Assembly (NCBI RefSeq): GCF_051307035.1
Contig: NZ_CP195536.1
Coordinates: 960,001-992,000, forward strand
Reading direction: 5' to 3'
Source of the DNA: Psychrobacter sp. DM4
GTDB lineage: Bacteria; Pseudomonadota; Gammaproteobacteria; Pseudomonadales; Moraxellaceae
Length of the DNA stretch: 32,000 nucleotides
Shown here one piece after another: positions 1 to 21,121 of this stretch. The notes beneath the pieces are model-generated. The model was not told where the DNA came from. It did no database searches and saw only the letters and a list, made by a program, of their open reading frames with translations. The position numbers and the translations under genes were made by a program. Position 1 is the stretch's first letter. Every line of letters starts with the position of its first letter.

Positions 1-1160
1 ATGCAGAAGGAAGCAATTTCATAAATTTTAAAATATGGTTTGAGAGTAATTATGAATTAGAAAGCTTTAAATATTTCGATGATTTTGAGGAGGTTTTTGA
101 AACTAAGAAACAGGAAGAGTATCTAGAATGGTGTGGTAATAATAGGCTCTTTATTAACGACTTAAACGATGTTTGTACATCTGAAGTTGTTTATCAAGAT
201 ATAATGACATTACCTTCAATTTCAGCTGAAATAAACATATCTTTAACTTTAGATGAAGAGCTTGTTTACCATGGCAATTTCGACGAAATCAAGAATGATT
301 ACTGCTACGCACGTTATCTAACATTTATTGCTCAAAATATGTCGAATGAAGAAGAGCATATATTTAATAAGACATATCCTCATGCTAACGATATATCTCA
401 CTCTATTACAAACATAAAAGCTAATCACTATAAAAGTGCTTTTAGAACTCTATATTCACTCTTTGATAAAATTGCATATTTTATTAATAGATTTTTTGAT
501 CTAAACAATATTGCAAAAGATCATAGAATTAGTTTTGATAGCCTTTTTAGACAGTTAAACAATAATAAAGGGTGGAAGCCGAACGACAAGCTCAGAGAAA
601 GTAATAACTATTTCATTCATGCATTATTCTATATTCTTAAAGACATTAAGGATGTAAAGGGAGTCACCCCTACAAGTCATTGGCTTGATCCCAATACGAA
701 AAAAATTTCAGAGATTAGAAACTCTATAGAACATCGTTCTTTAAAAATAGTCGATGATTTTGGAGACAAGTTAAACCAATTAGATAAGGTGTCCAAAGTA
801 TCTGAGCTGGAAAATATAAGAAGTGAAGTAATAGATTTAGAAAATAATATTGAAGTGTTAAGTGCTGAAATCACTGTGATAGGAAAAATAGAGAATAATG
901 CACTTAAGGAGCTTTTACAGAGCAAAATGCTAAACTTGAAAGATGATCTATTGGTTAAGAAATCAAAAGTTTATGAAAAGAATAAGCTTTCAAGTCATTC
1001 TTTGACTATTACAGAAAGTGACTTCAAAGAAAAGCTCATAACCTTGATGAAGCTTGTTCGTAACTCGATTATGTATATGTCATTGGCTATTCACTTAGAG
1101 GAAAGGAACAAGCTCAAGGATGATAGGCCTGTAATCAGTAGAGAGACACCTTTAAAATAG
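1..1160 (+). CDS. HEPN-domain protein (Rx4H motif, resembles the LA2681-like HEPN family), 5'-partial at the window edge, with a C-terminal coiled-coil segment
   Basis: Frame 3 is open from nt 3 to the stop at 1158-1160. Hand translation of 3-203 gives AEGSNFINFKIWFESNYELESFKYFDDFEEVFETKKQEEYLEWCGNNRLFINDLNDVCTSEVVYQDI with no stop. The first in-frame ATG (204) has no SD-like purine run upstream, so the gene probably starts left of the window. R-N-S-I-E-H (Rx4H) is encoded at 717-734, preceded by helical-looking 'AFRTLYSLFDKIAYFINRFF'. The heptad-like E/L/K/N-rich stretch 'LNQLDKVSKVSELENIRSEVIDLENNIEVLSAEI...KDDLLVKKSKVYEK' spans about nt 760-985. The family assignment is from memory of family consensus, not a search. 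Confidence 0.6.
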   Translation, partial: AEGSNFINFKIWFESNYELESFKYFDDFEEVFETKKQEEYLEWCGNNRLFINDLNDVCTSEVVYQDIMTLPSISAEINISLTLDEELVYHGNFDEIKNDYCYARYLTFIAQNMSNEEEHIFNKTYPHANDISHSITNIKANHYKSAFRTLYSLFDKIAYFINRFFDLNNIAKDHRISFDSLFRQLNNNKGWKPNDKLRESNNYFIHALFYILKDIKDVKGVTPTSHWLDPNTKKISEIRNSIEHRSLKIVDDFGDKLNQLDKVSKVSELENIRSEVIDLENNIEVLSAEITVIGKIENNALKELLQSKMLNLKDDLLVKKSKVYEKNKLSSHSLTITESDFKEKLITLMKLVRNSIMYMSLAIHLEERNKLKDDRPVISRETPLK

Positions 1161-1178
1161 CCATAAACATTCAAACAC

Positions 1179-1212
1179 AAAAAAACCTGCTAATAAGCAG
1201 GCTTTGATATTT
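1179..1212. terminator. Small hairpin terminator between the HEPN gene and the tRNA
   Basis: Stem CCTGCT (1186-1191) / AGCAGG (1196-1201) with loop AATA. An A-run (1179-1185) precedes it and T-rich 'ctttgatattt' follows, so it could work in either direction. Confidence 0.45.
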
Positions 1213-1236
1213 GGTCTAAGAAGTACTATCGAATAA

Positions 1237-1321
1237 TGGTGGGGCTGGAGAGACTCGAACTCTCACACCTTGCGGCGCCAGAACCTAAATCTGGTGCGTC
1301 TACCAATTCCGCCACAGCCCC
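1237..1321 (-). tRNA. tRNA-Leu, anticodon TAG (UAG), class II with long variable arm, encoded CCA
   Basis: The reverse complement folds by hand as a cloverleaf: acceptor GGGGCTG/CAGCCCC, D arm GCG-GAATTGGTAGA-CGC, anticodon stem CCAGA/TCTGG with loop TTTAGGT (anticodon TAG), variable arm CGCCGCAAGGTGT, T arm GAGAG-TTCGAGT-CTCTC, discriminator A, CCA. Confidence 0.93.
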
Positions 1322-1409: not shown

Positions 1410-1437
1410 ATTATATAGAGTTTGACTGGTTTGGCAA
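1410..1437 (-). promoter_or_regulatory. Candidate sigma70 promoter for tRNA-Leu
   Basis: On the minus strand: TTGCCA (plus 1432-1437), a 16-nt spacer, then TATAAT (plus 1410-1415), about 88 nt upstream of the tRNA 5' end. A weaker alternative is TTGAAT (1354-1359) / TAGAGT (1331-1336). Motif match only. Confidence 0.3.
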
Positions 1438-1530: not shown

Positions 1531-3186
1531 CTAGGACGGTATATCGAGTTGTCGTAATTTGCGAGTCAAAGTATTGCGGCCCCAGCCGAGCAAGTTGGCA
1601 GCCGCTATTTTTTTACCGCCCGTATGCTCAAGCGCTGCGGTTAGTAGGACACGCTCAAACTCAGGCATTGCAGTTTGCAAAATATCAGTCGCGCCTGATT
1701 GCAAAGCTTGCTGCGCCCAATCAGATAAGAGTAGTTGCCATTTATCAGGGTCATAAGAGTCAGACGCCGCCGCTATCGATGAAGGCTGACTGCTTTTTTG
1801 TGCATCGTCGCTAATGGACGTTTGAGCGAGCAGTTCAGGCGGCAAATCTTCACTCATAACGGTATCGCCTACTGTCATAACCGTGAGCCATAGGCAGACA
1901 TTCTCCAACTGACGGACATTACCACGCCACTCAAACCCTTGCATAATACGCATGGTGTCCGTGTGTAGCTGCTTTGGCTCTGTACTCATTTGCTCAGCTG
2001 CGCGCAGCATAAAGTAGTCCGCCAAGGCGTGAATATCATCGGTACGCGCGCGCAGTGGTGGTAGCGGCATACGGATGACATTGAGCCGATAGAATAGATC
2101 TTCACGAAACTTGCCTTGCTGAACTAAGTGCTCAAGGTTTTGATGCGTGGCGGCAATGATACGCACATCGACCTTGACGGGCTGCTGACCACCAACTCGA
2201 TAAAACTCCCCATTTGCTAACACTCGTAACAGCCTAGTTTGAGTGCTAAACGGCATATCACCGATTTCATCAAGGAATAGTGTGCCACCGTTCGCTTGTT
2301 CAAAGCGTCCTTGCCTACGCGTAGTCGCTCCTGTGAACGCGCCTTTTTCGTGTCCAAATAGCTCAGACTCAATCAAATCATGCGGGATTGCCGCCATATT
2401 TAGTGCGATAAAAGGCTGCTGCGCACGCGGCGAATGTTGATGTAGTGCCTCTGCAACAAGCTCTTTGCCCGTACCTGATTCTCCTGTAATGAGAACGGTA
2501 ATCGGGGAATGTGCCAGACGTCCGATAGCACGAAAGACTGTTTGCATCGCTTGCGACTGACCAATAATACCGCTGGGATTGGTGTTGGTGTCATTAGTAG
2601 CTTCAACTTGAGACAGTTTTTTTACTTGATGTTTAGGTTTTGCTTGAGCTGGCTTATCTTTTTTTACAAATGTCTTTTTTGTGTCATCTTCCATCACCGT
2701 TTTTTTGTCATCGTCAGTGGGCTGGGGGTCATTGCTGGTATTATTCGTTGGTTGATACTCGATAGCTTTATGAATCGTCGCGACGGCATCGTCCAAATCA
2801 AAAGGCTTGGGCAGATACTCAAACGCGCCTGCTTGATAGCTATTAACTGCCGAGGTAATGTCTGAATGCGCGGTCATAATGACAATAGGTATATCAGGGA
2901 AGTGCTGGTGCACCCAGTCGCTAAAAGATAAACCGTCCATCATCGGCATACGAATATCGGTCAAAATCACATCAGGTAAAGATCGCGATTCGCGCTGCTC
3001 TAAGATATCATTGAGGCGCGTCCATGCCGCTTGCGCTTGGGTAAAGCTAATGACGTTAAAGTTGGCATCGGTAAAGGTATCGGCAAGTATGAGGCGCAGT
3101 GCGGCGTCGTCATCGATCAGCCACAGAGTTGCGATAGTTTTTGCTATAGGTGACAAATTATGAGTATTTTTGCTAGGTTCAGTCAT
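1531..3186 (-). CDS. ntrC: Sigma54-dependent nitrogen regulation response regulator NtrC (receiver + AAA+ + HTH)
   Basis: Receiver domain (LIDDD...[10 protein letters not shown]...KPFD). The AAA+ core '[53 protein letters not shown]' is almost identical to enteric NtrC, including the GAFTGA loop. C-terminal Fis-type HTH '[20 protein letters not shown]'. It lies directly downstream of ntrB. Confidence 0.92.
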
Positions 3187-3217: not shown

Positions 3218-4543
3218 TTATTTTTGTATTGAATTTACTATATCGCTTGGTTGTTCAAAGGGCAGATATACCGTAAAACGCGTTTGACCGAGATTTAGAT
3301 AGGGTTCTGAGTGCTGCGCTAAGTTTTGGTCTGATGTAACCTCAATCATACCATGATGGCGATGCACGATATCTTGTACAATGGATAATCCAAGCCCTGT
3401 GCCCGTTGCGCGGCTAGTGACCATCGGAAAAAATATCTGTTCAATAAGTGAAGGGTCAATCCCTGAGCCATTGTCTGTGATAGCGACTTGTAGCACTTGT
3501 CTGTGCTGCTGATGACCGATAGTGTGCTGAAAGGCCACCCGCGTTTGAAGGTGTAGCCTAGCGGATTGAGTCTGCACATCATACTGCTTTTCACTCATGG
3601 CTTCGCAGGCATTATTAATAAGGTTTAAAAAAACTTGAATCAGCTGATCTTTGTCAGCGCAGAGTTCAGGCAATGACAAGTCATAATCACGTTCTACGTG
3701 TATCTTGGGGTACTGACTAAGTACAAGTGTTAGCACATGCTCAAGCGATTCGTGAATATTTAGAGTTCGCCAATCTGGCAGTTGATTGGATCCAAGCAAT
3801 TGACCGATAAGAGCAGTCAAACGATCGGTCTCTGAGATGATAATATCAGTATAACTACGCAGCTTTTGCGCTACTGTGCGAGTAGCAGATTCAGTAATAG
3901 TAAGGTCATTAGCCGTAGAGTGTCTATGTGACGAGCTGTCGTTTGCACTATCGTCGTATAATTTATTGAATTGCCGCTGTAGCAATTGCGCGGCGCCACG
4001 AATACCAGCTAATGGGTTTTTGACCTCATGAGCGACCGAGCGCAGCATTTGCCGCGCCACTTCGTACTGCTGCTGCTTGCGCTGATCTTTTGTGATACGA
4101 CTCTGACGATTCTTGCCCCACATCTCTACAATAAAAAATGGTTTTTGCTCATAAATGACAGGCGTAACACTATAGTCAACAGACAATACCGCACCATTGC
4201 TTAATGACGAGCTAATGATATGGTCATGATCGATAAAAGGCTGCTGGTAGTGCTGGGATTGCGCAAACCGCTCTTTTAAAGAGCACGTTTTGGTAGCTGT
4301 GTTCGTTATACCGAAATCGTCTGACCTATCTTGTATCTCATTTGACGCTAGCAGCGTGAGAATGGAGTGGTTTAATAGCCGTGCGCGGCTAATAGCCAGT
4401 AATTGCTCGGTTTGCGGATTGATCCATTGAACCACCAGCGCTTCATCGACCCATAGCACTGCGGTAAATAAGTGTTGGGAGATAAAGGCCGTTTGTGACT
4501 CATTAAGGCTTGGTGTATCAGTTGTTACAATAGAGTTGTCCAT
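3218..4543 (-). CDS. ntrB: Nitrogen regulation sensor histidine kinase NtrB (PAS + HisKA + HATPase)
   Basis: NtrB-type H-box 'HEVKNPLAGIRGAAQLL'. N box 'LNLINNACEA', G boxes 'DNGSGI' and 'GTGLGLSI'. Sits 31 nt upstream of ntrC. Confidence 0.88.
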   Translation of the reverse strand: MDNSIVTTDTPSLNESQTAFISQHLFTAVLWVDEALVVQWINPQTEQLLAISRARLLNHSILTLLASNEIQDRSDDFGITNTATKTCSLKERFAQSQHYQQPFIDHDHIISSSLSNGAVLSVDYSVTPVIYEQKPFFIVEMWGKNRQSRITKDQRKQQQYEVARQMLRSVAHEVKNPLAGIRGAAQLLQRQFNKLYDDSANDSSSHRHSTANDLTITESATRTVAQKLRSYTDIIISETDRLTALIGQLLGSNQLPDWRTLNIHESLEHVLTLVLSQYPKIHVERDYDLSLPELCADKDQLIQVFLNLINNACEAMSEKQYDVQTQSARLHLQTRVAFQHTIGHQQHRQVLQVAITDNGSGIDPSLIEQIFFPMVTSRATGTGLGLSIVQDIVHRHHGMIEVTSDQNLAQHSEPYLNLGQTRFTVYLPFEQPSDIVNSIQK

Positions 4544-4692: not shown

Positions 4693-6258
4693 ATGCGCAC
4701 AGTTATTTTATCTCAAGCAAGGTCAGCTATGTCCAAAATCTCAACCGAATCGATGACGACAAGTAGTAAACTGCCGACAGCGTTACAAGACACTGCCACC
4801 ATCTTCAATCCTGCTCAAGTACAAGCGCCGCAACAGCCTTATCATCATAAAGCCAATCACAACCAAAATCGTAGTATCGAGCAAAGTGCTGAGGCAAAAG
4901 TTAGTGCACCTGTGAACGCTGCGCCAAAGATCGGTTTCGTATCGCTTGGCTGCCCAAAGGCCTTGGTCGATAGCGAGCGTATTATTACAGAACTCACGCG
5001 TGATGGCTATCAAGTGGCAAGCGATTATGCGGGTGCTGACTTGGTTGTGGTTAATACTTGCGGCTTTATCGAGTCAGCGGTACAAGAGTCACTGGACGCG
5101 ATTGGCGAGGCAATTAGCAAAAACGGCAAAGTTATCGTCACTGGATGCTTGGGTAAGGAGGCGGACAAAATCCGTCAAATGCATCCCGCTGTGCTAGCGG
5201 TAACAGGTGCTCATGCCTATGATGAAGTGATTACCGCAGTTGGTCAGCATGTGCCCAAACCTAAGCGCGAAGCAGATGAGAACTACGATCCAAAGATAGA
5301 CCTAATCAACGAGGCGGGTATCAAATTAACCCCAAGCCACTATGCGTATCTAAAGATATCAGAGGGCTGTAATCATCGCTGCACGTTTTGCATTATTCCA
5401 AGTTTGCGCGGTGATCTGGTTTCGCGCCCCATTGATAGCGTCATGAATGAAGCGATGGCGCTTAAAAATGCTGGCGTCAAAGAGCTGCTCATTATCTCAC
5501 AAGACACCTCAGCTTATGGTCTTGATCTCAAATACAAGACTAGCTTTTGGAATGGTATGCCGCTCAAGTCCAAGTTTTATGACCTGTGCCAAGCGTTGAA
5601 CGATTTGGGCATTTGGGTACGATTGCATTACGTTTATCCTTATCCGCATGTCGATAAAGTCGTTGAGCTGATGGGCGAGGGCAAGCTTTTGCCTTATCTC
5701 GATATTCCGTTTCAACACGCCAGTCATAGTATATTAAAAGCCATGAAACGCCCCGCCCATAGCGAAAACACTTTGGCACGTATTCACAAATGGCGTGAGA
5801 TTTGCCCTGAGATTGTCATTCGATCGACCTTTGTCGTCGGTTTCCCAGGTGAGACTGAAGACGACTTTCAATGCTTGCTTGATTGGCTCACTGAGGCGCG
5901 TCTTGATCGCGTCGGCGCGTTTACGTATTCAGAAGTTGAAGGCGCTGTTGCCAACGACTTGCCTAATCACGTACCAGAAGATGTCAAGCAATCTCGCTAC
6001 GAGCGTCTGATGACGCTACAACAAGATATCTCAGCGCAAAAATTACAAGAAAAAATTGGTAGAACCTTAATGGTACTCGTCGATGAAATAGACTTTGAGG
6101 AAGGTGTCGCTATTTGTCGCAGTTATGCGGACGCACCTGAGATTGACGGTCATGTCTATGTTGATGATATTGATGCTACTGTCAAAGTGGGTCAGTTCTT
6201 AACGGTCACTATCGATGATGCTAGTGAATATGATTTGTTTGCCAGTTATCAAGGTTAA
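4693..6258 (+). CDS. rimO: Ribosomal protein S12 methylthiotransferase RimO (radical SAM, MTTase + TRAM)
   Basis: '[20 protein letters not shown]...[23 protein letters not shown]...[10 protein letters not shown]' and radical-SAM '[11 protein letters not shown]'. The conserved part starts at aa 78. The true start may be ATG 4729 (MSKIST..., preceded by 'caagg'). Confidence 0.9.
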
Positions 6259-7973: not shown

Positions 7974-8198
7974 ATAGCAATAACCGTCAAGCCGTATCTA
8001 CTCCTTGATATCGAGGACTGACCATACCTTTTATACTCGATATAAATTGAGTATAAAAAAGTACTTTTAAACGTCATAGTAAGATTTTTTAACGGGTAAC
8101 CCCATTTATGATAAGTTTGTGAAATACTAGCGCAAGGCTTTTGCTCCGATATAGAGCACGCTATGATAACCTGACTATCACAACAAGTAGACGACCTC

Positions 8199-11218: not shown

Positions 11219-12586
11219 ATGACTTTTTTATTAACACTACTAGCCGCTATTTTTGTATTAGGTCCGCTTATTGCCTTGCATGAGTGGGGACATTATATCG
11301 TAGCAAGGCTTTGCGGCGTCAAAGTCTTAACCTACTCTATTGGTTTTGGTCCCAAAATCGCAGGTTGGACGAGCAAAAAGAGCGGTATTGATTATCGTAT
11401 CTCAGCGCTACCCCTAGGCGGCTACGTCAAGATGCTCGATGAGCGTGAAGGCGAGGTTTCCGCAGATGAGTTACATTTAGCGTTTAACCGTCAGCATCCA
11501 CTCAAAAAGATAGCCGTTGTCGCGGCAGGTTCTTTGATGAATTTTATCATTGCTATTGCTCTGTTTTGGGTGCTGTTCATGACGCCATCCGAGCAATTAG
11601 CCACCAAGATTGGACAAATACTACCCGATACTCCTGCAGCGATAGCGAACATGCCAGTCGGCGACAAGATTATCGCTATAGATGGTCATAAAGTGCAGAC
11701 ATGGGAGGGAATTAATTACCGCTTAGCGAACCGTATGGGTGAGACGCAAAACATCAGCATCACTCTGGAATCTGCTGAGCAAGCTACTCAAACCTATCTG
11801 GCACCTGTAACAGAGTTTATGCAAGGCGATGCTCAAGGTAAAGATGCCTTAACTAGCTTTGGCATGCTCCCTTGGCAACCACAAATTGCACCTGTCATTG
11901 GTGAGCTGTCAGCTGATGGCGCTGCAAGTTTGCAAGGTATGCAAGCTGGTGATCAAATTACCGCTATTAATGATACGCTCATAACCGATTGGATCAGTGC
12001 GACGCGAGTCATTAGAGATAACCCAGAAACACTGCTTAATTTTAGCGTATTGCGTGATGGCGACCCTGTGATGCTACAGATTATGCCTCAAGCCAAAAAA
12101 GACACTCTGGGCAATCGTTACGGACAGATTGGGGCTATGGTTGCACAGACTGACATTGTGATTCCAGATGCTTATAAGACTACCGTTGAGTATGGCGCAG
12201 GCGCCGCTTTGGTTCAATCGTTCAAAAAGACTGAGCAACTGGCCGTTATGACTGTCAGCTCAATGGGCAAGATGCTCTCAGGTATGATAGGGCTAGACAA
12301 CTTGTCAGGACCGATTACAATCGCCAAGGTTGCCAAACAGAGTTTTGATATCAGTTGGGAGATGGTACTATCTACCGCTGCATTGATTAGCCTGAGTCTA
12401 GCAGTGCTCAACTTACTGCCGATTCCAGTACTTGATGGTGGTCATATCGTTTATTATGTGATCGAGCTCATTCGCGGTAAGCCTTTGCCTGAAGGTGTAC
12501 AAATAGCAGGTTTGAATATCGGTTTACTCTTGCTGGCAGGTTTCATGGTGTTAGCTATTGGTAATGATATCAGCCGACTGTTTTAA
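11219..12586 (+). CDS. rseP: Sigma-E protease RseP (site-2 zinc metalloprotease, two PDZ domains)
   Basis: 'HEWGHY' HExxH motif near the N-terminus and C-terminal 'NLLPIPVLDGGH'. 455 aa. Conserved position before bamA. Confidence 0.9.
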   Translation: MTFLLTLLAAIFVLGPLIALHEWGHYIVARLCGVKVLTYSIGFGPKIAGWTSKKSGIDYRISALPLGGYVKMLDEREGEVSADELHLAFNRQHPLKKIAVVAAGSLMNFIIAIALFWVLFMTPSEQLATKIGQILPDTPAAIANMPVGDKIIAIDGHKVQTWEGINYRLANRMGETQNISITLESAEQATQTYLAPVTEFMQGDAQGKDALTSFGMLPWQPQIAPVIGELSADGAASLQGMQAGDQITAINDTLITDWISATRVIRDNPETLLNFSVLRDGDPVMLQIMPQAKKDTLGNRYGQIGAMVAQTDIVIPDAYKTTVEYGAGAALVQSFKKTEQLAVMTVSSMGKMLSGMIGLDNLSGPITIAKVAKQSFDISWEMVLSTAALISLSLAVLNLLPIPVLDGGHIVYYVIELIRGKPLPEGVQIAGLNIGLLLLAGFMVLAIGNDISRLF

Positions 12587-12849
12587 AGAGGCGTACTGTG
12601 CTTTGCAGAGTCAGACGCGATAGGTTAATGGCTAAGAGGTAGTAATACTTGATTTATAACGGTATGCTACTGACAGTCTAAGAGACTAGCTACTGTACTA
12701 ATCGTAATTTTTAGTTTATTTTGTGATACGTTTTATATAAAGTGTCCTTAGCGGCTCATCATGTACTTGTCTTACTAGTATTCGATAGCGCTTGACCATG
12801 TATAGTTTTACCTTAACTTAAGCAAGTTTTTTATTGACGGATAGTGTTT

Positions 12850-15285
12850 ATGCGTACGCCTTTATTGATGAGTGCGGCTGGGTTGCCGTTAGTTGTAGCG
12901 ATGATGAGTGTGCCTGTACAGGCTGCCACCTTTGTAGTGACCGATATCGGTTTTACAGGGTTACAGCGCTTGACCCCTGACAGCCTATATCCTGTACTGC
13001 CAATCGAAGTTGGCGATACCGTTACTGATAGCAGTCTTGCGGCAAGTATCAAGGCACTGTATGCCACTGATAATTTTGCCAATATTCAAAGCCGTGTCGA
13101 GGGCAATCAGCTGCGTTTTGACATGGTTGAGCGTCCTGTTATCGCCGAAGTCAACTTTGAAGGCAATAAGCTCATTCCTAAAGAGGGGCTAGAAGAAGGA
13201 CTTGCAAGCGCGGGTTTATCCGCTGGGGATGTACTTAAACAATCGACCTTGCAGGCGGTGGCAAACGAGCTACAGCAGCAGTATATCAGTCAAGGATATT
13301 ACAATAGCAATATTGAGGTGGATCAAACACTACTCGATGGCAACCGCGTCAAACTGGATGTGCGCTTTATTGAAGGTAAGCCTGCTAAAGTTGTCGATAT
13401 TAATATCATTGGCAACAGTCATTTTAGTGATGAGGATATCAAAGACGTCTTTGCGGTAAAAGAGTCCTCTTGGACGCGTCTATTGTCAAAATCCGATCGC
13501 TACGCCAAAGAGAAGCTGGCGGCAAGTTTGGAGAGTTTGAAAGCGCTATATCAGAACGATGGCTACGTACGCTTCAATGTCGACAATGCCATACTTAATA
13601 TCAGTGAAGACAAGAGCAGTGTCTTTATTGAAGTGAGCCTCAGTGAAGGTGAGCAGTATCAGTTTGGTGAAGTGAATTTTTTAGGCCAGCCTACTTTTGA
13701 GAATAATGAATTAAGAGAACTTGTCACTTTTGCCCCCAGTGAGCAGTACTCTCAAGCAAATCTCGATGAGACAACCGCTGCGCTAAAAAATCGCTACGGC
13801 AACGATGGCTATTACTTTGCACAAGTACGTCCTGTATCGCGCATCAATGATGAGACCAAAATTGTCGACGTCGATTATTACATCGATCCTGCGCGTCCCA
13901 TCTATGTTCGCCGTATTAACTTTGATGGAAATATTAAGACCCAAGACCAGGTGCTACGCCGCGAGATGCGACAGCTAGAGGGCGCATTGACCTCTAATCG
14001 TGATATTCAACTGTCACGTACGCGCCTGATGCGTACTGGGTTTTTTAAGAGCGTCAATGTCGATGTCAAACCAGTACCCAACCAGCCTGACCAGATCGAT
14101 ATCAACTATACTGTAGTTGAGCAGCCTTCTGGCAGCTCAACGATTGCCGCTGGTTATTCACAAAGTGGCGGTGTTACTTTTCAGTTAGATCTCACTCAAA
14201 ACAACTTTATGGGTACGGGTAACCGTGTCAAAGCAGCGTTATCGCGTTCAGAGACACGTGATTCATATAGCTTGGGTTATACCGATCCTTACTTTACCGA
14301 AAACGGGGTATCACAAGGCGTTAGCGCCTACTACCGCGAGACCAAGTTCGATGATCGCAACGTTAGCAACTATGTTACTGACTCTTATGGCGCTACGCTC
14401 AACTATAGCTATCCTGTTGATGAAACTAAGCGCGTGAGCGCAGGGTTAAATATCGATAACACCGATGTCCGTGGTGGTCGTAATTTAGGGGTCTCAAACG
14501 TAGATCGAATCATTGATGATGGCGGCTCTTTTGAGAACTTCACTGGTGAATTTGAAGGTCGTACCGGCTTTAAAAACGACTATACGACCTATAATTTGCT
14601 CCTTGGCTGGGACTACAGTACGCTTGACCGTCCCGTATTTCCAACCAAAGGCATGAGTCATACGGTTGATGCGACCATTGGTCTTGGTGATGTTAATTAT
14701 CAAAAGCTTATCTATCGCGGTAATGTCTACTATCCACTTTATAAAGACGTAGTAGCGCGTGGTTATACTAAGCTCGGTTACGGTAATGATCTTCCCTTTT
14801 ACGAGAACTTTTATGCGGGTGGTTATGGCTCCGTTCGAGGTTATGAGTCCTCAACTTTAGGTCCTAAATCACAAAGTTACGCTGATGCTATCAGTGATCA
14901 AGACATACGTAGCATCAGAGACGAAGAAGTTGGTGGTAACGCACTAGCGACGTTCGGGACTGAGCTAATCCTACCCTTACCATTCAAAGGCGATTGGGCG
15001 GATCAAGTTCGTCCTGTACTATTCGCTGAAGGCGGACAAGTATTCGATACGACCGGCAGAGAAGACACAAACTTCGTCGATCCAAACGGCAATGTCACAC
15101 TCAATCCTGATGGCAGTCCTGTAAAGCTACTGACACAAGATAATGGCTTACGTTTTAGTGCAGGAGCTGGTGTGACGTGGTATACGCCTATTGGTCCTAT
15201 ATCATTAAGCTACGCGGTGCCAATCGGTGACAAAGAAGGCGATGAGACTGAAAAAGTTCAGTTCCAGATCGGTAGTACCTTTTAA
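12850..15285 (+). CDS. bamA: Outer membrane protein assembly factor BamA (POTRA repeats + Omp85 barrel)
   Basis: Signal peptide '...VPVQAATF', POTRA-like repeats, 'VRRINFDGNIKTQDQVLRREM', and a C-terminal barrel ending 'FQIGSTF'. The track start is GTG 12844; ATG 12850 is an equally plausible start. Confidence 0.93.
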   Translation: MRTPLLMSAAGLPLVVAMMSVPVQAATFVVTDIGFTGLQRLTPDSLYPVLPIEVGDTVTDSSLAASIKALYATDNFANIQSRVEGNQLRFDMVERPVIAEVNFEGNKLIPKEGLEEGLASAGLSAGDVLKQSTLQAVANELQQQYISQGYYNSNIEVDQTLLDGNRVKLDVRFIEGKPAKVVDINIIGNSHFSDEDIKDVFAVKESSWTRLLSKSDRYAKEKLAASLESLKALYQNDGYVRFNVDNAILNISEDKSSVFIEVSLSEGEQYQFGEVNFLGQPTFENNELRELVTFAPSEQYSQANLDETTAALKNRYGNDGYYFAQVRPVSRINDETKIVDVDYYIDPARPIYVRRINFDGNIKTQDQVLRREMRQLEGALTSNRDIQLSRTRLMRTGFFKSVNVDVKPVPNQPDQIDINYTVVEQPSGSSTIAAGYSQSGGVTFQLDLTQNNFMGTGNRVKAALSRSETRDSYSLGYTDPYFTENGVSQGVSAYYRETKFDDRNVSNYVTDSYGATLNYSYPVDETKRVSAGLNIDNTDVRGGRNLGVSNVDRIIDDGGSFENFTGEFEGRTGFKNDYTTYNLLLGWDYSTLDRPVFPTKGMSHTVDATIGLGDVNYQKLIYRGNVYYPLYKDVVARGYTKLGYGNDLPFYENFYAGGYGSVRGYESSTLGPKSQSYADAISDQDIRSIRDEEVGGNALATFGTELILPLPFKGDWADQVRPVLFAEGGQVFDTTGREDTNFVDPNGNVTLNPDGSPVKLLTQDNGLRFSAGAGVTWYTPIGPISLSYAVPIGDKEGDETEKVQFQIGSTF

Positions 15286-15442
15286 GGACTAAGCATAGCT
15301 ATGTCCTTATCTACTACTAGTCGTGATTTACTACAGGTTTAACACCTCAAACCTTGTAGTAATGCGCTGTTATTCAATAAGTCGTCAGACTGATTTTAGA
15401 TTTGACGACTGTTTACTTATACCTACAATACTACGATCAATT

Positions 15443-16459
15443 ATGATAACGATTGAGCACCTTATTACTCAAATTGAGAGGCGTCAGCCAGTACTGAATA
15501 AGGCTGAGCTGAGTGCCAAGCAATTGCAGCTGAGCTTGACTGGTATAGGTAGTCTCGTCGATGCCAATGCAGCGCAGTTGAGCTTTTTGGCGGATCCCAG
15601 CTACATCTCCAGTTTGGCTCAAAGTCAGGCAGGCGCAGTCTTAGTGACCCAAAAGTATCAGCAGCAAGTACCAGTAGGCGTCGTTGCCATAGTCGTTGAC
15701 AATCCTTATTTGGCTTATGCTAATAGTAGTCAGCGGTTTGCATTTACGTCAAAGACTAGCCGTATTCATCCCACTGCTAGTATTGATGATAGTGCAATAC
15801 TAGGTGAGTCGGTTAGCATTGGACCTTTTTGCGTGATCGATGAACAAGTCGCTATCGGCGCGCGTAGTTGCTTAGATGCTCATGTTGTTATCGAGGCTTA
15901 TGCTACTATCGGTACCGACTGCATCCTTAACTCTCAGGTGGTGCTGAGTCATCACTGCGTTTTAGGTAATCATGTGCGTTTGCATGCTGGTGCAAGCATT
16001 GGTGCTGAGGGCTTTGGCTTTGCACCAACAGTAGACCCTAGTACAAGTGGCTGGGAGCGCATTGCGCAATTAGGTCGCGTTATTATCGGTGATCACGTCC
16101 GCATCGGTAGCAATACTTGCGTAGATCGCGGCGCTATCGATGATACGGTAATCGGTAATCATGTTATTATCGACAATCTGGTGCAGATCGCTCATAACGT
16201 ACGCATTGGCGATGGTAGTGCTATTGCGGCGCAAACGGGTATTGCTGGGAGCACTACCATTGGCAAACGATGTATCATAGGTGGCGCTGTCGGCATTACA
16301 GGTCACGTTGCTATCACTGACGACGTCACACTATCTGGCATGACGATGGTGACCAAATCAATAAAAACGCCCGGCCCTTATTCCTCAGGTACAGCTGCAA
16401 TGCCGACTGCTAAATGGCGCAAAGCTGCGGTTAGGTTTCGAAAATTAGGCTACGATTAA
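15443..16459 (+). CDS. lpxD: UDP-3-O-acylglucosamine N-acyltransferase
   Basis: Left-handed beta-helix hexapeptide repeats and 'NPYLAYA'. Alignment from memory to LpxD begins at 'MITIEHL' (ATG 15443). The 40 aa upstream in the track ORF (15323) have no LpxD-like content. Confidence 0.88.
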
Positions 16460-16519
16460 AAGAGCGTATAATGGTCATCCCGTTGTAAATAATCGCTGAG
16501 ATAGCAAGGAAAGCATATT

Positions 16520-17038
16520 ATGAGCACTACTGATTTTGAAACCCTCACTGATACTGATATCAGCAAATTAGCAGAGCAGGGACTCACCCTACCTTTGACT
16601 TATCATACGCTTAAGCATTACTTGCCGCATCGCTACCCTTTTATGCTGGTCGACAAGATTACAGCTTGCAAACCTGATGAATCCATCATAGGTATCAAGA
16701 ACGTTACGATCAATGAAGAGTTCTTTAATGGTCATTTTCCAGGTGAGCCCATTATGCCAGGTGTATTGATGGTAGAGTCAATGGCGCAGGTCTCAGGGGT
16801 ACTTGGATTTATTAGTGCAGGCTTAACCGCAGAAGATGGTTACTTATATCTGTTTGCAGGTGTTGATAAGGTTCGTTTCAAGCGCCGCGTAATTCCTGGT
16901 GATCAGCTAATTATTCGCGCTAAAACCGTCATGCAAAAACGCGGTATCTACAAGTTTGATTGTACCGTACACGTAGAGAATCAGCTGGCTGCTAGCGCCC
17001 AAATTATGATTGCCCGTCAAGAGCAACCTGACAAATAA
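16520..17038 (+). CDS. fabZ: 3-hydroxyacyl-ACP dehydratase FabZ
   Basis: 'LPHRYPFMLVDKI...NEEFFNGHFPGEPIMPGVLMVESMAQ', RBS 'aagga'. Confidence 0.94.
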   Translation: MSTTDFETLTDTDISKLAEQGLTLPLTYHTLKHYLPHRYPFMLVDKITACKPDESIIGIKNVTINEEFFNGHFPGEPIMPGVLMVESMAQVSGVLGFISAGLTAEDGYLYLFAGVDKVRFKRRVIPGDQLIIRAKTVMQKRGIYKFDCTVHVENQLAASAQIMIARQEQPDK

Positions 17039-17112
17039 CAATGTCAGAGGCATGCTAGCACCCTTACACCTAGATCATTTTTGTATAATTGAGACCTACA
17101 AAGGCCTGCACT

Positions 17113-17892
17113 ATGAGTCAGATTCACCCTACAGCAATCATCTCACCATCCGCTACGATTGATGACACCGCTGTCATAGGACCTTATTGCATAATAGGGG
17201 ACGAGGTGAGCATTGGCGCTCATACTACTTTGCATAGACATGTGGTGGTATCCAAACTGACTCGTATCGGACAACACAACCAGATCTATCAGTTTGCAAG
17301 TGTAGGAGAGGACTGTCAGGATCTAAAATATGACGGCGAACGTACTTGGCTTGAGATAGGAGACCATAATACTATCCGCGAAGCTTGTAGTTTGCATCGA
17401 GGAACCATGCAGGAGAAGGGTTTGACCAAGATTGGCAGTCATAATCTACTGATGGTAAACACTCATGTGGCGCATGATTGCATTATCGGTGATCACAATA
17501 TATTTGCTAATAACGTCGGTATCGCAGGGCATGTGATCATCGGTGATCATACTATTATTGGTGGTAATTCAGGTATACATCAGTTTTGCCGCGTAGACGA
17601 CTATAGCTTGATTGGCGGTGCCAGCTTAATTTTAAAAGATGTCGCTGCCTTTACTATGGTGTCTGGTAATCCTGCAAGTGCTCACGGTCTCAATGTTGAG
17701 GGCATGCGCCGTAAAAACTGGCCCAAAGAGACCATTGATGTACTGCGCCAAGCCTACCGCGTTATTTATAGATCGGGTCTTACCACCGTACAAGCGCTTG
17801 AAGTGCTCCATCAAGATATGCTACCGCAAGAGCCAAAGATTCAACTGCTCATTGATTCCCTACAACAAAGCCAGCGCGGCGTAGTACGCTAA
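17113..17892 (+). CDS. lpxA: Acyl-ACP--UDP-N-acetylglucosamine O-acyltransferase
   Basis: 'MSQIHPTAIISPSATIDD' plus hexapeptide repeats and 'GLNVEGMRRKN'. The track start at 17089 is TTG; ATG 17113 matches the usual LpxA N-terminus. Confidence 0.9.
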   Translation: MSQIHPTAIISPSATIDDTAVIGPYCIIGDEVSIGAHTTLHRHVVVSKLTRIGQHNQIYQFASVGEDCQDLKYDGERTWLEIGDHNTIREACSLHRGTMQEKGLTKIGSHNLLMVNTHVAHDCIIGDHNIFANNVGIAGHVIIGDHTIIGGNSGIHQFCRVDDYSLIGGASLILKDVAAFTMVSGNPASAHGLNVEGMRRKNWPKETIDVLRQAYRVIYRSGLTTVQALEVLHQDMLPQEPKIQLLIDSLQQSQRGVVR

Positions 17893-17910
17893 AGTAGACT
17901 TTCATTCTTT

Positions 17911-17946
17911 AAAAGCCATAACACTAAGTTATGGCTTTTTTGTGTT
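17911..17946 (+). terminator. Rho-independent terminator after lpxA
   Basis: Stem GCCATAAC (17915-17922) / GTTATGGC (17928-17935), extended by AAAA/TTTT, followed by TTTTTTGTGTTT. Confidence 0.8.
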
Positions 17947-18114
17947 TATCAGTTCTTGACTTTTTGTAACGATTAGCAGAAACTTCCTAGTCATATAGCG
18001 TTAGATTCTAGTAACTTATTTTAACCAATAACTGACTTGTCGTCTCTTTGAGTATTTACCCTTTACTAAGCTAAATAGCTCAAAGGGACTTGCAAACAAA
18101 TTTAGGAGTGCTTT

Positions 18115-19635
18115 ATGGCAGAGCCAAGAGAAAGCTGGTCCAGTCGAACTGGGTTTATTCTAGCCGCTGTCGGTTCAGCGGTCGGACTAGGTAATATATG
18201 GCGGTTCCCCTATGTAGCCTATGATAATGGGGGCGGGGCATTTATGGTACCCTACCTTATTGCGTTGTTGACCGCGGGTATTCCTCTATTATTTTTGGAC
18301 TATATTATCGGTCACAAATATCGCGCCGCTGCGCCTCGTGCCTACAAAAAAATGGTGCCCTCCGCTCAGTTTGTCGGATGGTGGCAGACGCTAGTCTCCT
18401 TTGTCATCGCTATTTATTACGCTGCTGTTATCGTTTGGGCAGGCAGCTACATGTTTTTCTCCTTTGGACAAAAATGGGGCGAGGATACCACAACTTTCTT
18501 TGTCAGTGATTTTGTCCAACATACAGGGGAGCTGACTTCAGTATTTGTACCGCAGATGTTTACAGGCCTTGTTATTGTTTGGGTACTTGCTATCTTGATT
18601 ATGTTTGGTGGTATTCGTAAGGGCGTTGAGCTTGCTAACAAAATCTGTATTCCACTGCTTATTGTCTTATTCGGTATCATGGTATTCAAAGCGTTGACCT
18701 TGCCAGGTGCGGTTATCGGTATCAATGCTTTCTTTGAGCCTAATTGGACAAAAATGCAAGATCCTAATGTGTGGCTGGCCGCTTACGGTCATGTGTTTTT
18801 CTCTTTATCAGTTGGTTTTGGTATCATGGTAACGTATGCCTCCTACCTCAAAAAGAATACGAACTTAACTGGCGCAGGTTTAGTCGTTGGTTTTGCGAAC
18901 TCATCGTTTGAGCTTATCGCTGGTATCGGTATCTTTGCTGCGATCGGTTTTATGGCGATGTCGACAGGTCAAGACGTTTCAGAAGTAGCTAGTGGCGGCG
19001 TCGGACTGGCGTTCTTTGTTTTCCCAAAAATCATCTCTACTATGGGTGCCAGCGGTGATTTTGTTGGTTTCTTATTCTTTGGCTCACTAGTAGTTGCTGG
19101 TATCAGCTCACTTATTAGTATCTTAGAAGTCCCAATCTCTGCGTTTCAAGACAAGTTTGATTGGTCACGTAAAAAAGCCGTGGCCTCAATCGTTGGCGTC
19201 TGTGCGATTATCTCGATCGCAGCTTTCTCTACGGGCAGCTCGCTAGTCTTGGTCGACGTTATTGATCATTTTGCCAACAACATCGGCATCGTCGCTGGTG
19301 GCCTCATGTCTATCGTTTGGGTGACTTGGTTTAATCGTAACAAGATTCCAGGCTTGCTTGCTCATATCAACCGCATCTCTAGCGTCAAGCTTGGCGGCGC
19401 TTGGGTATTTATGTTGACGGTCATTACACCTACGGTGCTAACAGTAGCTTTGGGTCTTAAGCTTATTAACTTAGTACAAGAGCCTTATGAGGGTTATTCT
19501 ACTTCTATTCTCTTGTTATTTGGTTGGGGCGTAGTGGTCTTCTTTGGTCTAGGTGCATTTATACTAACCCGTATGAAAGGCTTGCATGATGCTGAAGATG
19601 ATAAGTCACGCGCGCTTGACGATGCCCGTAGATAA
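18115..19635 (+). CDS. Sodium-dependent transporter, NSS/SNF family
   Basis: 'WSSRTGFILAAVGSAVGLGNIWRFPY' NSS signature, about 12 predicted TM segments, RBS 'aggag'. Substrate not determinable. Confidence 0.88.
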   Translation: MAEPRESWSSRTGFILAAVGSAVGLGNIWRFPYVAYDNGGGAFMVPYLIALLTAGIPLLFLDYIIGHKYRAAAPRAYKKMVPSAQFVGWWQTLVSFVIAIYYAAVIVWAGSYMFFSFGQKWGEDTTTFFVSDFVQHTGELTSVFVPQMFTGLVIVWVLAILIMFGGIRKGVELANKICIPLLIVLFGIMVFKALTLPGAVIGINAFFEPNWTKMQDPNVWLAAYGHVFFSLSVGFGIMVTYASYLKKNTNLTGAGLVVGFANSSFELIAGIGIFAAIGFMAMSTGQDVSEVASGGVGLAFFVFPKIISTMGASGDFVGFLFFGSLVVAGISSLISILEVPISAFQDKFDWSRKKAVASIVGVCAIISIAAFSTGSSLVLVDVIDHFANNIGIVAGGLMSIVWVTWFNRNKIPGLLAHINRISSVKLGGAWVFMLTVITPTVLTVALGLKLINLVQEPYEGYSTSILLLFGWGVVVFFGLGAFILTRMKGLHDAEDDKSRALDDARR

Positions 19636-19667
19636 CGGTTAGATAAACGATATAATAGGAATATATT

Positions 19668-19802
19668 ATGAGTACTTCAGCAATTATTTTTATGATTATC
19701 TCAATGCTATTGATATGGGGCGGATTAATTGCTGCTATCTTGCACTTGAGAAAACACCCTGACATTCCAATGAGTCAGCTACCAGACGATGATATCTACT
19801 AA
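19668..19802 (+). CDS. 44-aa single-TM protein, probable MetS-like NSS transporter small subunit (not in the ORF track)
   Basis: ATG 19668 lies 8 nt after 'aggaa' and 32 nt after the NSS stop. Translation is MSTSAIIFMIISMLLIWGGLIAAILHLRKHPDIPMSQLPDDDIY*. It has one hydrophobic helix with an 'IWGG' core and a basic then acidic tail. A terminator follows immediately. Confidence 0.6.
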   Translation: MSTSAIIFMIISMLLIWGGLIAAILHLRKHPDIPMSQLPDDDIY

Positions 19803-19830
19803 AGCTAAGCTTTTATCGGTATCATCAATA

Positions 19831-19866
19831 AAAATGCCAGTCAATGAGAGTTGACTGGCGTTTTTG
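19831..19866. terminator. Bidirectional terminator between the NSS operon (+) and tgt (-)
   Basis: Stem GCCAGTCAA (19836-19844) / TTGACTGGC (19851-19859), with an A-run upstream and GTTTTT downstream. Confidence 0.75.
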
Positions 19867-19927
19867 GCTTTGTAATATCTCAGGCTGATAAAGTAAAAGT
19901 GACTATATCTAGTCGCCATTATGATAG

Positions 19928-21121
<1,194 letters not shown>

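Follow-up and report, generated by a model that had tools for sequence, protein, structure and literature searches.

The 32,000-nucleotide (nt) stretch of Psychrobacter sp. DM4 that we analysed (NZ_CP195536.1, positions 960,001 to 992,000, forward strand; hereafter the window) begins with AT-rich DNA that ends shortly before a tRNA-Leu(UAG) gene. Our results indicated that this left edge is foreign DNA and most likely a single inserted gene, rather than the edge of a large integrase-borne island. Specifically, we favour (at a probability of roughly 0.62) the reading that positions 1-1174 are the right two thirds of an accessory islet of ~1.8 kb, whose one gene encodes a stand-alone HEPN ribonuclease (RNase) of the abortive-infection or toxin type. 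The gene is a new addition to an already known, computationally defined HEPN family (LA2681, Pfam PF18733). An earlier note on this DNA had read the block as the probable edge of a genomic or defence island. That reading was plausible; its correction shows that an AT-rich block beside a tRNA gene need not be an integrase-borne island.

An AT-rich block with one truncated gene

The G+C content of positions 1-1160 was 0.305, compared with a mean of 0.446 (standard deviation 0.017, minimum 0.408) for all other 1160-nt segments of the window. This corresponds to z = -8.5 and bears out the abrupt, foreign composition that the earlier note had described, including its hand counts of G+C per 60-nt line (15, 15, 20, 34 and 30 at lines 1, 421, 1021, 1561 and 10021), all of which were exact on recount. 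At third codon positions, the G+C content was 0.29 in the HEPN gene vs. 0.46 in ntrC.

The block holds one open reading frame (ORF), uninterrupted from base 3 until the TAG at 1158-1160, which encodes residues 192-576 of the 576-amino-acid (aa) protein WP_435980287.1 of Psychrobacter sp. DM4 (100% identity). The part of the gene outside the window is its first 191 codons (573 nt). RefSeq already names this protein as LA2681-like HEPN family, and its accession is consecutive with those of the neighbouring NtrC and NtrB proteins (WP_435980287, 288 and 289). The stop codon lies 76 nt from the minus-strand tRNA-Leu(UAG), whose encoded CCA end points toward the AT-rich DNA (ARAGORN, Rfam). This arrangement, and the identification of the cargo as a predicted RNase of HEPN type whose 5' end lies outside the window, had both been recognised correctly from the letters alone. 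The features on which the argument turns are as follows.

3..1160, plus strand: HEPN ORF, C-terminal 385 codons and stop (open frame; 100% identity to WP_435980287.1; PF18733, E 2e-38)
252..797, plus strand: core of the HEPN_LA2681 domain, residues 275-456 (best Pfam stretch; coordinate mapping)
717..734, plus strand: predicted catalytic Rx4H motif, R430-N-S-I-E-H435 (alignment of 72 homologues; coordinate mapping)
756..995, plus strand: predicted antiparallel coiled-coil hairpin, residues 443-522 (AlphaFold2 models)
1161..1174, no strand: right-hand end of the insert (occupied sites aligned with empty ones)
1182..1205, no strand: bidirectional intrinsic terminator hairpin, core DNA (terminator scan of both strands; conservation in relatives)
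1237..1321, minus strand: tRNA-Leu(UAG), core gene, 100% conserved in Psychrobacter (ARAGORN; Rfam, 58.5 bits; alignment)

Occupied and empty sites in Psychrobacter

We compared the window with ntrC/tRNA-Leu regions fetched from other Psychrobacter species, in every one of which tRNA-Leu follows ntrC. Six sites were empty, three carried the HEPN gene and three carried other inserts; none of the nine other Psychrobacter loci that were examined here had the HEPN gene. The empty sites come from six species (L001, L002, L003, L005, L007 and L008), have normal G+C and share one gene order, in which a convergent Ser/Thr kinase gene stops 63-204 nt past tRNA-Leu and is succeeded by genes for a DUF815 ATPase, an MBL-fold protein, a GST and an EamA transporter. 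The variable presence at the tRNA-Leu/ntrC junction for which the earlier note had proposed a check was thereby confirmed.

The right-hand end of the insert could be placed closely. DM4 aligns with the empty sites from tRNA-Leu through the hairpin at 1182-1205 to ACACAAAAAAA at about 1175, and homology with the empty sites restarts at ACACAAAAAAACCTGC, just past 1161-1174. Since the alignment extends ~60 nt beyond tRNA-Leu, the junction falls within 1161-1174 and not inside the tRNA. When compared with L092, a close relative whose site lacks the HEPN gene, homology resumes 2 nt past the HEPN stop codon. The suggestion that the AT-rich segment abuts the tRNA is thus correct only in that the tRNA is nearby; the break in composition and the end of homology both lie at about 1161-1174, between the ORF stop and the terminator hairpin. 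Integration at the tRNA 3' end, which had also been suggested, is not supported by a junction ~60 nt past the tRNA and beyond its terminator. No ORF lies between tRNA-Leu and the HEPN gene, so there is no integrase there.

The hairpin itself (GCCTGC-TTATTA-GCAGG followed by a T-run on the minus strand) scores as a terminator on both strands and is kept in L001-L007, L081, L082 and L092, empty sites included. On the minus strand it ends the tRNA transcript, and on the plus strand that of the HEPN gene or, in empty sites, of the kinase gene. An integron gene cassette was also considered and rejected: the HEPN stop codon is followed by no more than 2-14 nt of non-core DNA, there is no attC, and the hairpin is the tRNA terminator that is also present in empty sites. 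With regard to repeats, the 3' 23-mer of tRNA-Leu, a direct repeat of which the earlier note had proposed to look for further left, occurs once in the window, and a shorter 3' 20-mer was not found in L081 or L082. An Rfam search of the window returned tRNA-Leu and no other RNA family.

The left side of the insert, seen in relatives

Two metagenomic contigs (L081 and L082) carry an orthologous HEPN gene in the same slot, with the same terminator and tRNA flank at its 3' end. The L081 protein is 84% identical to that of DM4 (85.6% at the nucleotide level) and the L082 protein 71% identical. In both contigs, a Ser/Thr kinase gene stops 55-56 nt upstream of the HEPN start; this is the core kinase, as it is 50% identical to the kinase of strain DM8 and the C-termini match. 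The adjacency of kinase and HEPN genes implies an insert of ~55 + 1731 + 2-14 nt, roughly 1.8 kb, with one gene and no integrase. By analogy with these relatives, only ~630 nt of the DM4 insert would lie outside the window, and the multi-gene system that had been expected to the left is probably absent. In DM4 itself, the kinase protein was not found by two protein searches and a C-terminal peptide comparison. Contigs with a near-identical NtrC stop at or before tRNA-Leu, and the closest match among species-representative genomes was DM8, at 83%.

No promoter or terminator consensus was found in the 55-nt spacer between the kinase and HEPN genes. It is therefore possible that the HEPN gene is read through from the upstream kinase gene, with transcription ending at the hairpin that terminates the kinase gene where the site is empty.

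The HEPN protein

The Pfam model HEPN_LA2681 (PF18733) matched the fragment encoded in the window with 132 bits (E 2e-38) and the full protein with 130 bits; the cut-off of the model is 27. The full-length DM4 protein is as long as its homologues, and in an alignment of 72 homologues we found R430, N431, E434, H435, R436 and S437 to be invariant. NCBIfam gave no informative match.

An AlphaFold2 model of the full protein, computed with the homologue alignment as input, was of good overall quality (predicted local distance difference test score, pLDDT, 85.5; predicted template-modelling score, pTM, 0.84) and has a three-part architecture. Residues 1-240 are modelled as an all-helical, repeat-like N-terminal domain. 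Residues 274-560 form the HEPN region, with an intact RNxxEH motif. The third part, placed after the motif helix and before the last helix of HEPN, is a hairpin of two long helices (443-487 and 490-522; pLDDT mostly 80-95). A Foldseek search of the N-terminal part against the PDB gave the tetratricopeptide repeat (TPR) proteins LGN and NASP as top matches, which were weak (E >= 0.015), and no Pfam TPR match was found in the DM4 protein. A sequence search of the PDB returned no solved relative.

The family is large. Searching all 50%-identity cluster representatives recovered 858 relatives at E <= 1e-3, most of them 500-545 aa long and with a best stretch that matches query residues of about 70-445. 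These lengths and matched ranges indicate that a helical domain followed by HEPN is the family norm, in agreement with the description of LA2681 as a HEPN family with a conserved Rx4-6H motif fused to TPR (Anantharaman et al. 2013, Table 1, PMC3710099). Judging from the same figures, most of the 500-545-aa relatives appear to lack the 80-residue coiled-coil hairpin. The DM4 protein is like the LA2681 family (PF18733) in its strong profile match, its Rx4-6H motif and possibly its N-terminal helical domain, which resembles TPR proteins weakly, and its subfamily of ~576 aa appears to differ in the extra coiled-coil hairpin within the HEPN domain.

Selection, distribution and genomic context

Among the three Psychrobacter HEPN alleles, the ratio of nonsynonymous to synonymous substitution rates (dN/dS) was 0.06-0.19, which indicates purifying selection on the gene, and dS was 0.6-2.8. 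The dS values form a pronounced mosaic along the gene (e.g., 1.10 at residues 192-442 and 0.17 at residues 443-522 between DM4 and L081), and this suggests recombination between HEPN alleles.

Outside the genus, the closest relatives belong to Vibrio, Photobacterium, Shewanella and Enterobacterales. The homologues at 50-62% identity stand alone, and across nine contexts no neighbour was conserved; the homologous genes examined outside Psychrobacter had a G+C content of 0.32-0.36 in loci of 0.39-0.52. All but one of the examined contexts were prophages, plasmids, mobile islands or a defence island. The Vibrio chagasii homologue lies in an island with CBASS-type and AAA+HNH genes and an integrase, and a homologue on a Vibrio IncC plasmid adjoins helicase and methyltransferase genes; the Edwardsiella homologue is in a prophage and the Klebsiella homologue on an IncF plasmid. 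In E. coli, where 11 of 5426 complete genomes carry the gene, it occurs in three settings (the edge of a region resembling a conjugative element, a Rac-like prophage, and an ssrA-inserted integrase/MobQ island). Scanning metagenomes with the HEPN protein gave one distant locus (57% identity), viral contigs gave no match, and a search of a phage collection gave a single match at 26% identity.

Predicted function and alternative explanations

In the explanation that we favour, the islet sits between the core Ser/Thr kinase gene, which in DM4 would lie just outside the window, and the terminator of tRNA-Leu(UAG), and its product would be a self-contained abortive-infection or toxin-type RNase. 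The helical TPR-like N-terminal domain may act as a sensor or auto-inhibitor that keeps the HEPN site inactive until a phage-derived trigger is bound. Two HEPN domains would then dimerise, as other HEPN RNases do, possibly via the coiled coil, and the composite site would cut cellular or phage RNA and so halt infection. We lean, if only somewhat beyond even odds, towards the specific prediction that this LA2681 TPR-HEPN-coiled-coil protein acts alone as an abortive-infection RNase and uses its helical domain to sense a phage protein. The gene would have arrived by a route other than tRNA-directed integrase recombination, and its spread among Psychrobacter lineages was most likely by homologous recombination of the conserved flanks.

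The protein can be compared with known single-protein systems. AbiD/AbiF, AbiJ, AbiU2, ApeA and the DS-11 CBS-HEPN protein of DefensePredictor likewise combine a putative sensor or regulatory domain with a HEPN RNase domain in one polypeptide. They too have no partner gene, are AT-rich and patchily distributed, and occur in prophages or defence islands. The DM4 protein differs from them in that it matches none of their PADLOC models and has a putative, TPR-like sensor rather than an AbiJ-NTD or CBS domain. By this analogy, it would work like the AbiJ-, ApeA- and DS-11-type defences while standing outside those families. An E. coli protein of the LA2681 family has been listed as a 'predicted novel defense gene' by machine learning (log-odds 9.1), though not among the validated systems (DefensePredictor supplement, PMC13092281). 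The HEPN gene is a compact single-gene candidate for phage defence, with clear predicted catalytic residues (R430 and H435) and a predicted sensor domain. Its family, which comprises 858 clusters at 50% identity, was described computationally in 2013 and has one member scored defensive by machine learning.

Several observations weigh against this explanation. PADLOC-DB v2 gave no match at E <= 1, whether queried with the fragment, with the full protein or with either of two homologues, and PHROGs gave none for the HEPN protein. A text search for LA2681 and PF18733 returned the 2013 survey only and no experimental evidence of RNase activity or phage defence in the family. When the model of residues 269-576 was compared with the PDB using Foldseek, nothing was found at E <= 0.001 and the coiled coil dominated the matches; with no solved structural match for the HEPN part, its assignment depends on the Pfam profile and the motif. 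Ordinary housekeeping genes surround one homologue (L090). Around the insert, neither a target duplication nor terminal repeats were found beyond what chance would give. The kinase neighbour and the 1.8-kb size ascribed to DM4 are both extrapolated from two metagenomic contigs and should be interpreted with corresponding caution.

A selfish toxin or addiction-type element (or its remnant) is one alternative. Such an element would take no part in phage defence; its activity would be restrained in cis, and it would persist via recombination and linkage to mobile elements. HEPN domains are common as toxins (PMC3710099), plasmid and prophage copies of the gene lie next to other toxin genes (HigB with a helix-turn-helix gene in L084, the ptaRNA1 toxin in L093 and Hok in L094), and the missing PADLOC match fits as well. 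We nevertheless regard this as unlikely, considering that no antitoxin-like partner ORF is conserved in any context, that the Psychrobacter flanks are just 55 and 76 nt, that the chromosomal copy is under purifying selection at a fixed site in three lineages, and that homologues are co-located with CBASS and restriction-like genes. The HEPN/MNT (HepT-MntA) type VII toxin-antitoxin systems share the logic of a HEPN RNase toxin; the DM4 gene, however, has no MNT or other partner beside it, and its protein is four times larger and has a helical N-terminal domain of its own. A HEPN-MNT or other two-gene toxin-antitoxin module was rejected, as the flanks of 55-56 nt and 76 nt hold no ORF and no neighbour is conserved in the nine contexts. 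Another comparison is with RNase L and Ire1, in which a kinase is fused to a KEN-type HEPN domain. In Psychrobacter, the Ser/Thr kinase gene is similarly the next gene upstream, in the same orientation, and no promoter or terminator could be recognised in between; here, however, the two are separate genes. That the HEPN gene is co-transcribed with and controlled by this fast-evolving kinase, as a split bacterial counterpart of the RNase L/Ire1 kinase-HEPN(KEN) arrangement recruited three times in the slot, strikes us as barely credible. A functional kinase link was rejected as the main explanation, given that the kinase is a core gene found without HEPN in most species and that no homologue elsewhere adjoins a kinase; the adjacency is most likely accidental.

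The remaining alternatives concern the origin of the DNA. If an integrase had inserted a larger genomic or defence island at the tRNA-Leu 3' end, and the block were its right edge, further cargo, an integrase and a far att repeat (TTCGAGTCTCTCCAGCCCCACCA) would lie to the left of the window. The foreign composition and the orientation of the tRNA, with its 3' end facing the segment, would fit this, as would the use of the same tRNA by an integrase-borne prophage in Psychrobacter sp. NPDC078501 and the E. coli LA2681 HEPN gene that is the first cargo beside the integrase of an ssrA-inserted island; moreover, the left flank in DM4 lies beyond the window. Against it stand the ~60 nt of core sequence, tRNA terminator included, that separate the tRNA from the foreign DNA (with the NPDC078501 prophage, homology breaks ~13 nt after the CCA), the fact that the window has the tRNA 3' end only once, and the stop of the core kinase gene 55-56 nt upstream of the HEPN start in both contigs that show the left side. 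More generally, the DM4 insert is like tRNA-targeting integrase islands and prophages in its position beside a tRNA 3' end, its deviant composition and its variable presence, and differs from them in having no integrase or att repeat, in its junction beyond the terminator and in its size of ~1.8 kb with one gene. We consider such an island improbable. What stands of the island-edge interpretation as a whole is that the DNA is foreign and accessory and carries a HEPN gene; the integrase/tRNA-att model and the multi-gene system are not supported. An ancestral Psychrobacter gene with a housekeeping role in RNA processing, deleted in most species, is more improbable still. The identical slot in three lineages and the dS of 0.6-2.8 do imply an old residence in the genus. 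This explanation is at odds with the deviating composition (G+C 0.30 vs. 0.45, and the low third-position value relative to ntrC), the absence of the gene from the nine other Psychrobacter loci, its rarity in E. coli, and the location of the Vibrio and Enterobacterales relatives on mobile elements wherever their surroundings were examined.

Other inserts at the same site

The spacer between the kinase and tRNA-Leu genes is a small insertion hotspot that holds a HEPN gene, an insertion sequence (IS) element or a prophage, depending on the lineage. In Psychrobacter sp. NPDC078501 (L006), positions 11905-20100 are a genuine integrase-borne prophage at the 3' end of the same tRNA-Leu(UAG), with genes for a tyrosine integrase (12145-13293, minus strand) that adjoins the tRNA, a CI/S24 repressor and a primase. 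This prophage, which served as a positive control for integrase insertion at tRNA-Leu, ends homology with other species about 13 nt after the CCA, and the HEPN insert differs from it in kind. In P. urativorans (CP012678; L091, 5029-8552) and its relative L092 (2476-2940), an IS3-type transposase orfA stands between the terminator and the tRNA.

P. urativorans also shows the 53-nt terminator region twice (5077-5129 and 8024-8076), flanking ~2.9 kb that include a gene for a 528-aa beta-helix protein, and ntrBC is absent between the tRNA and miaB. In Psychrobacter sp. bablab_jr014 (L008), tRNA-Leu(UAG) is tandemly duplicated (11914-11998 and 12113-12197).

Neighbouring genes

To the right of the tRNA, three further features were recorded.

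1410..1437, minus strand: promoter-like site upstream of tRNA-Leu, TTGCCA-16-TATAAT, 11/12 matches (consensus scan only)
1531..3186, minus strand: sigma-54-dependent response regulator of NtrC type, core flank (Pfam; RefSeq names; synteny with the tRNA in seven Psychrobacter species)
3218-4543: NtrB-type kinase after the NtrC-type gene (Pfam; RefSeq names)

Positions 1531-32000 are housekeeping DNA, comprising ntrC/ntrB and genes for a MiaB-like radical-SAM protein, pyrH, frr, bamA, an SNF transporter, tgt, a SOUL protein, asd, an EEP nuclease/phosphatase, surA, lptD, an APH-type kinase and a nucleotidyltransferase.

On the other side of the tRNA in the relatives, the Ser/Thr kinase (L001, 12003-12965, and orthologues) is the most divergent gene of the neighbourhood, with 48-53% identity in four species and 36% in L008, compared with 77-82% for DUF815, 65-83% for GST and 66-72% for NtrC. 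Its G+C content is slightly under the locus average. The core MBL-fold protein of the kinase/DUF815 cluster (L091, 1848-2972) has a precomputed Pfam match to Anti-Pycsar_Apyc1 (PF23023).

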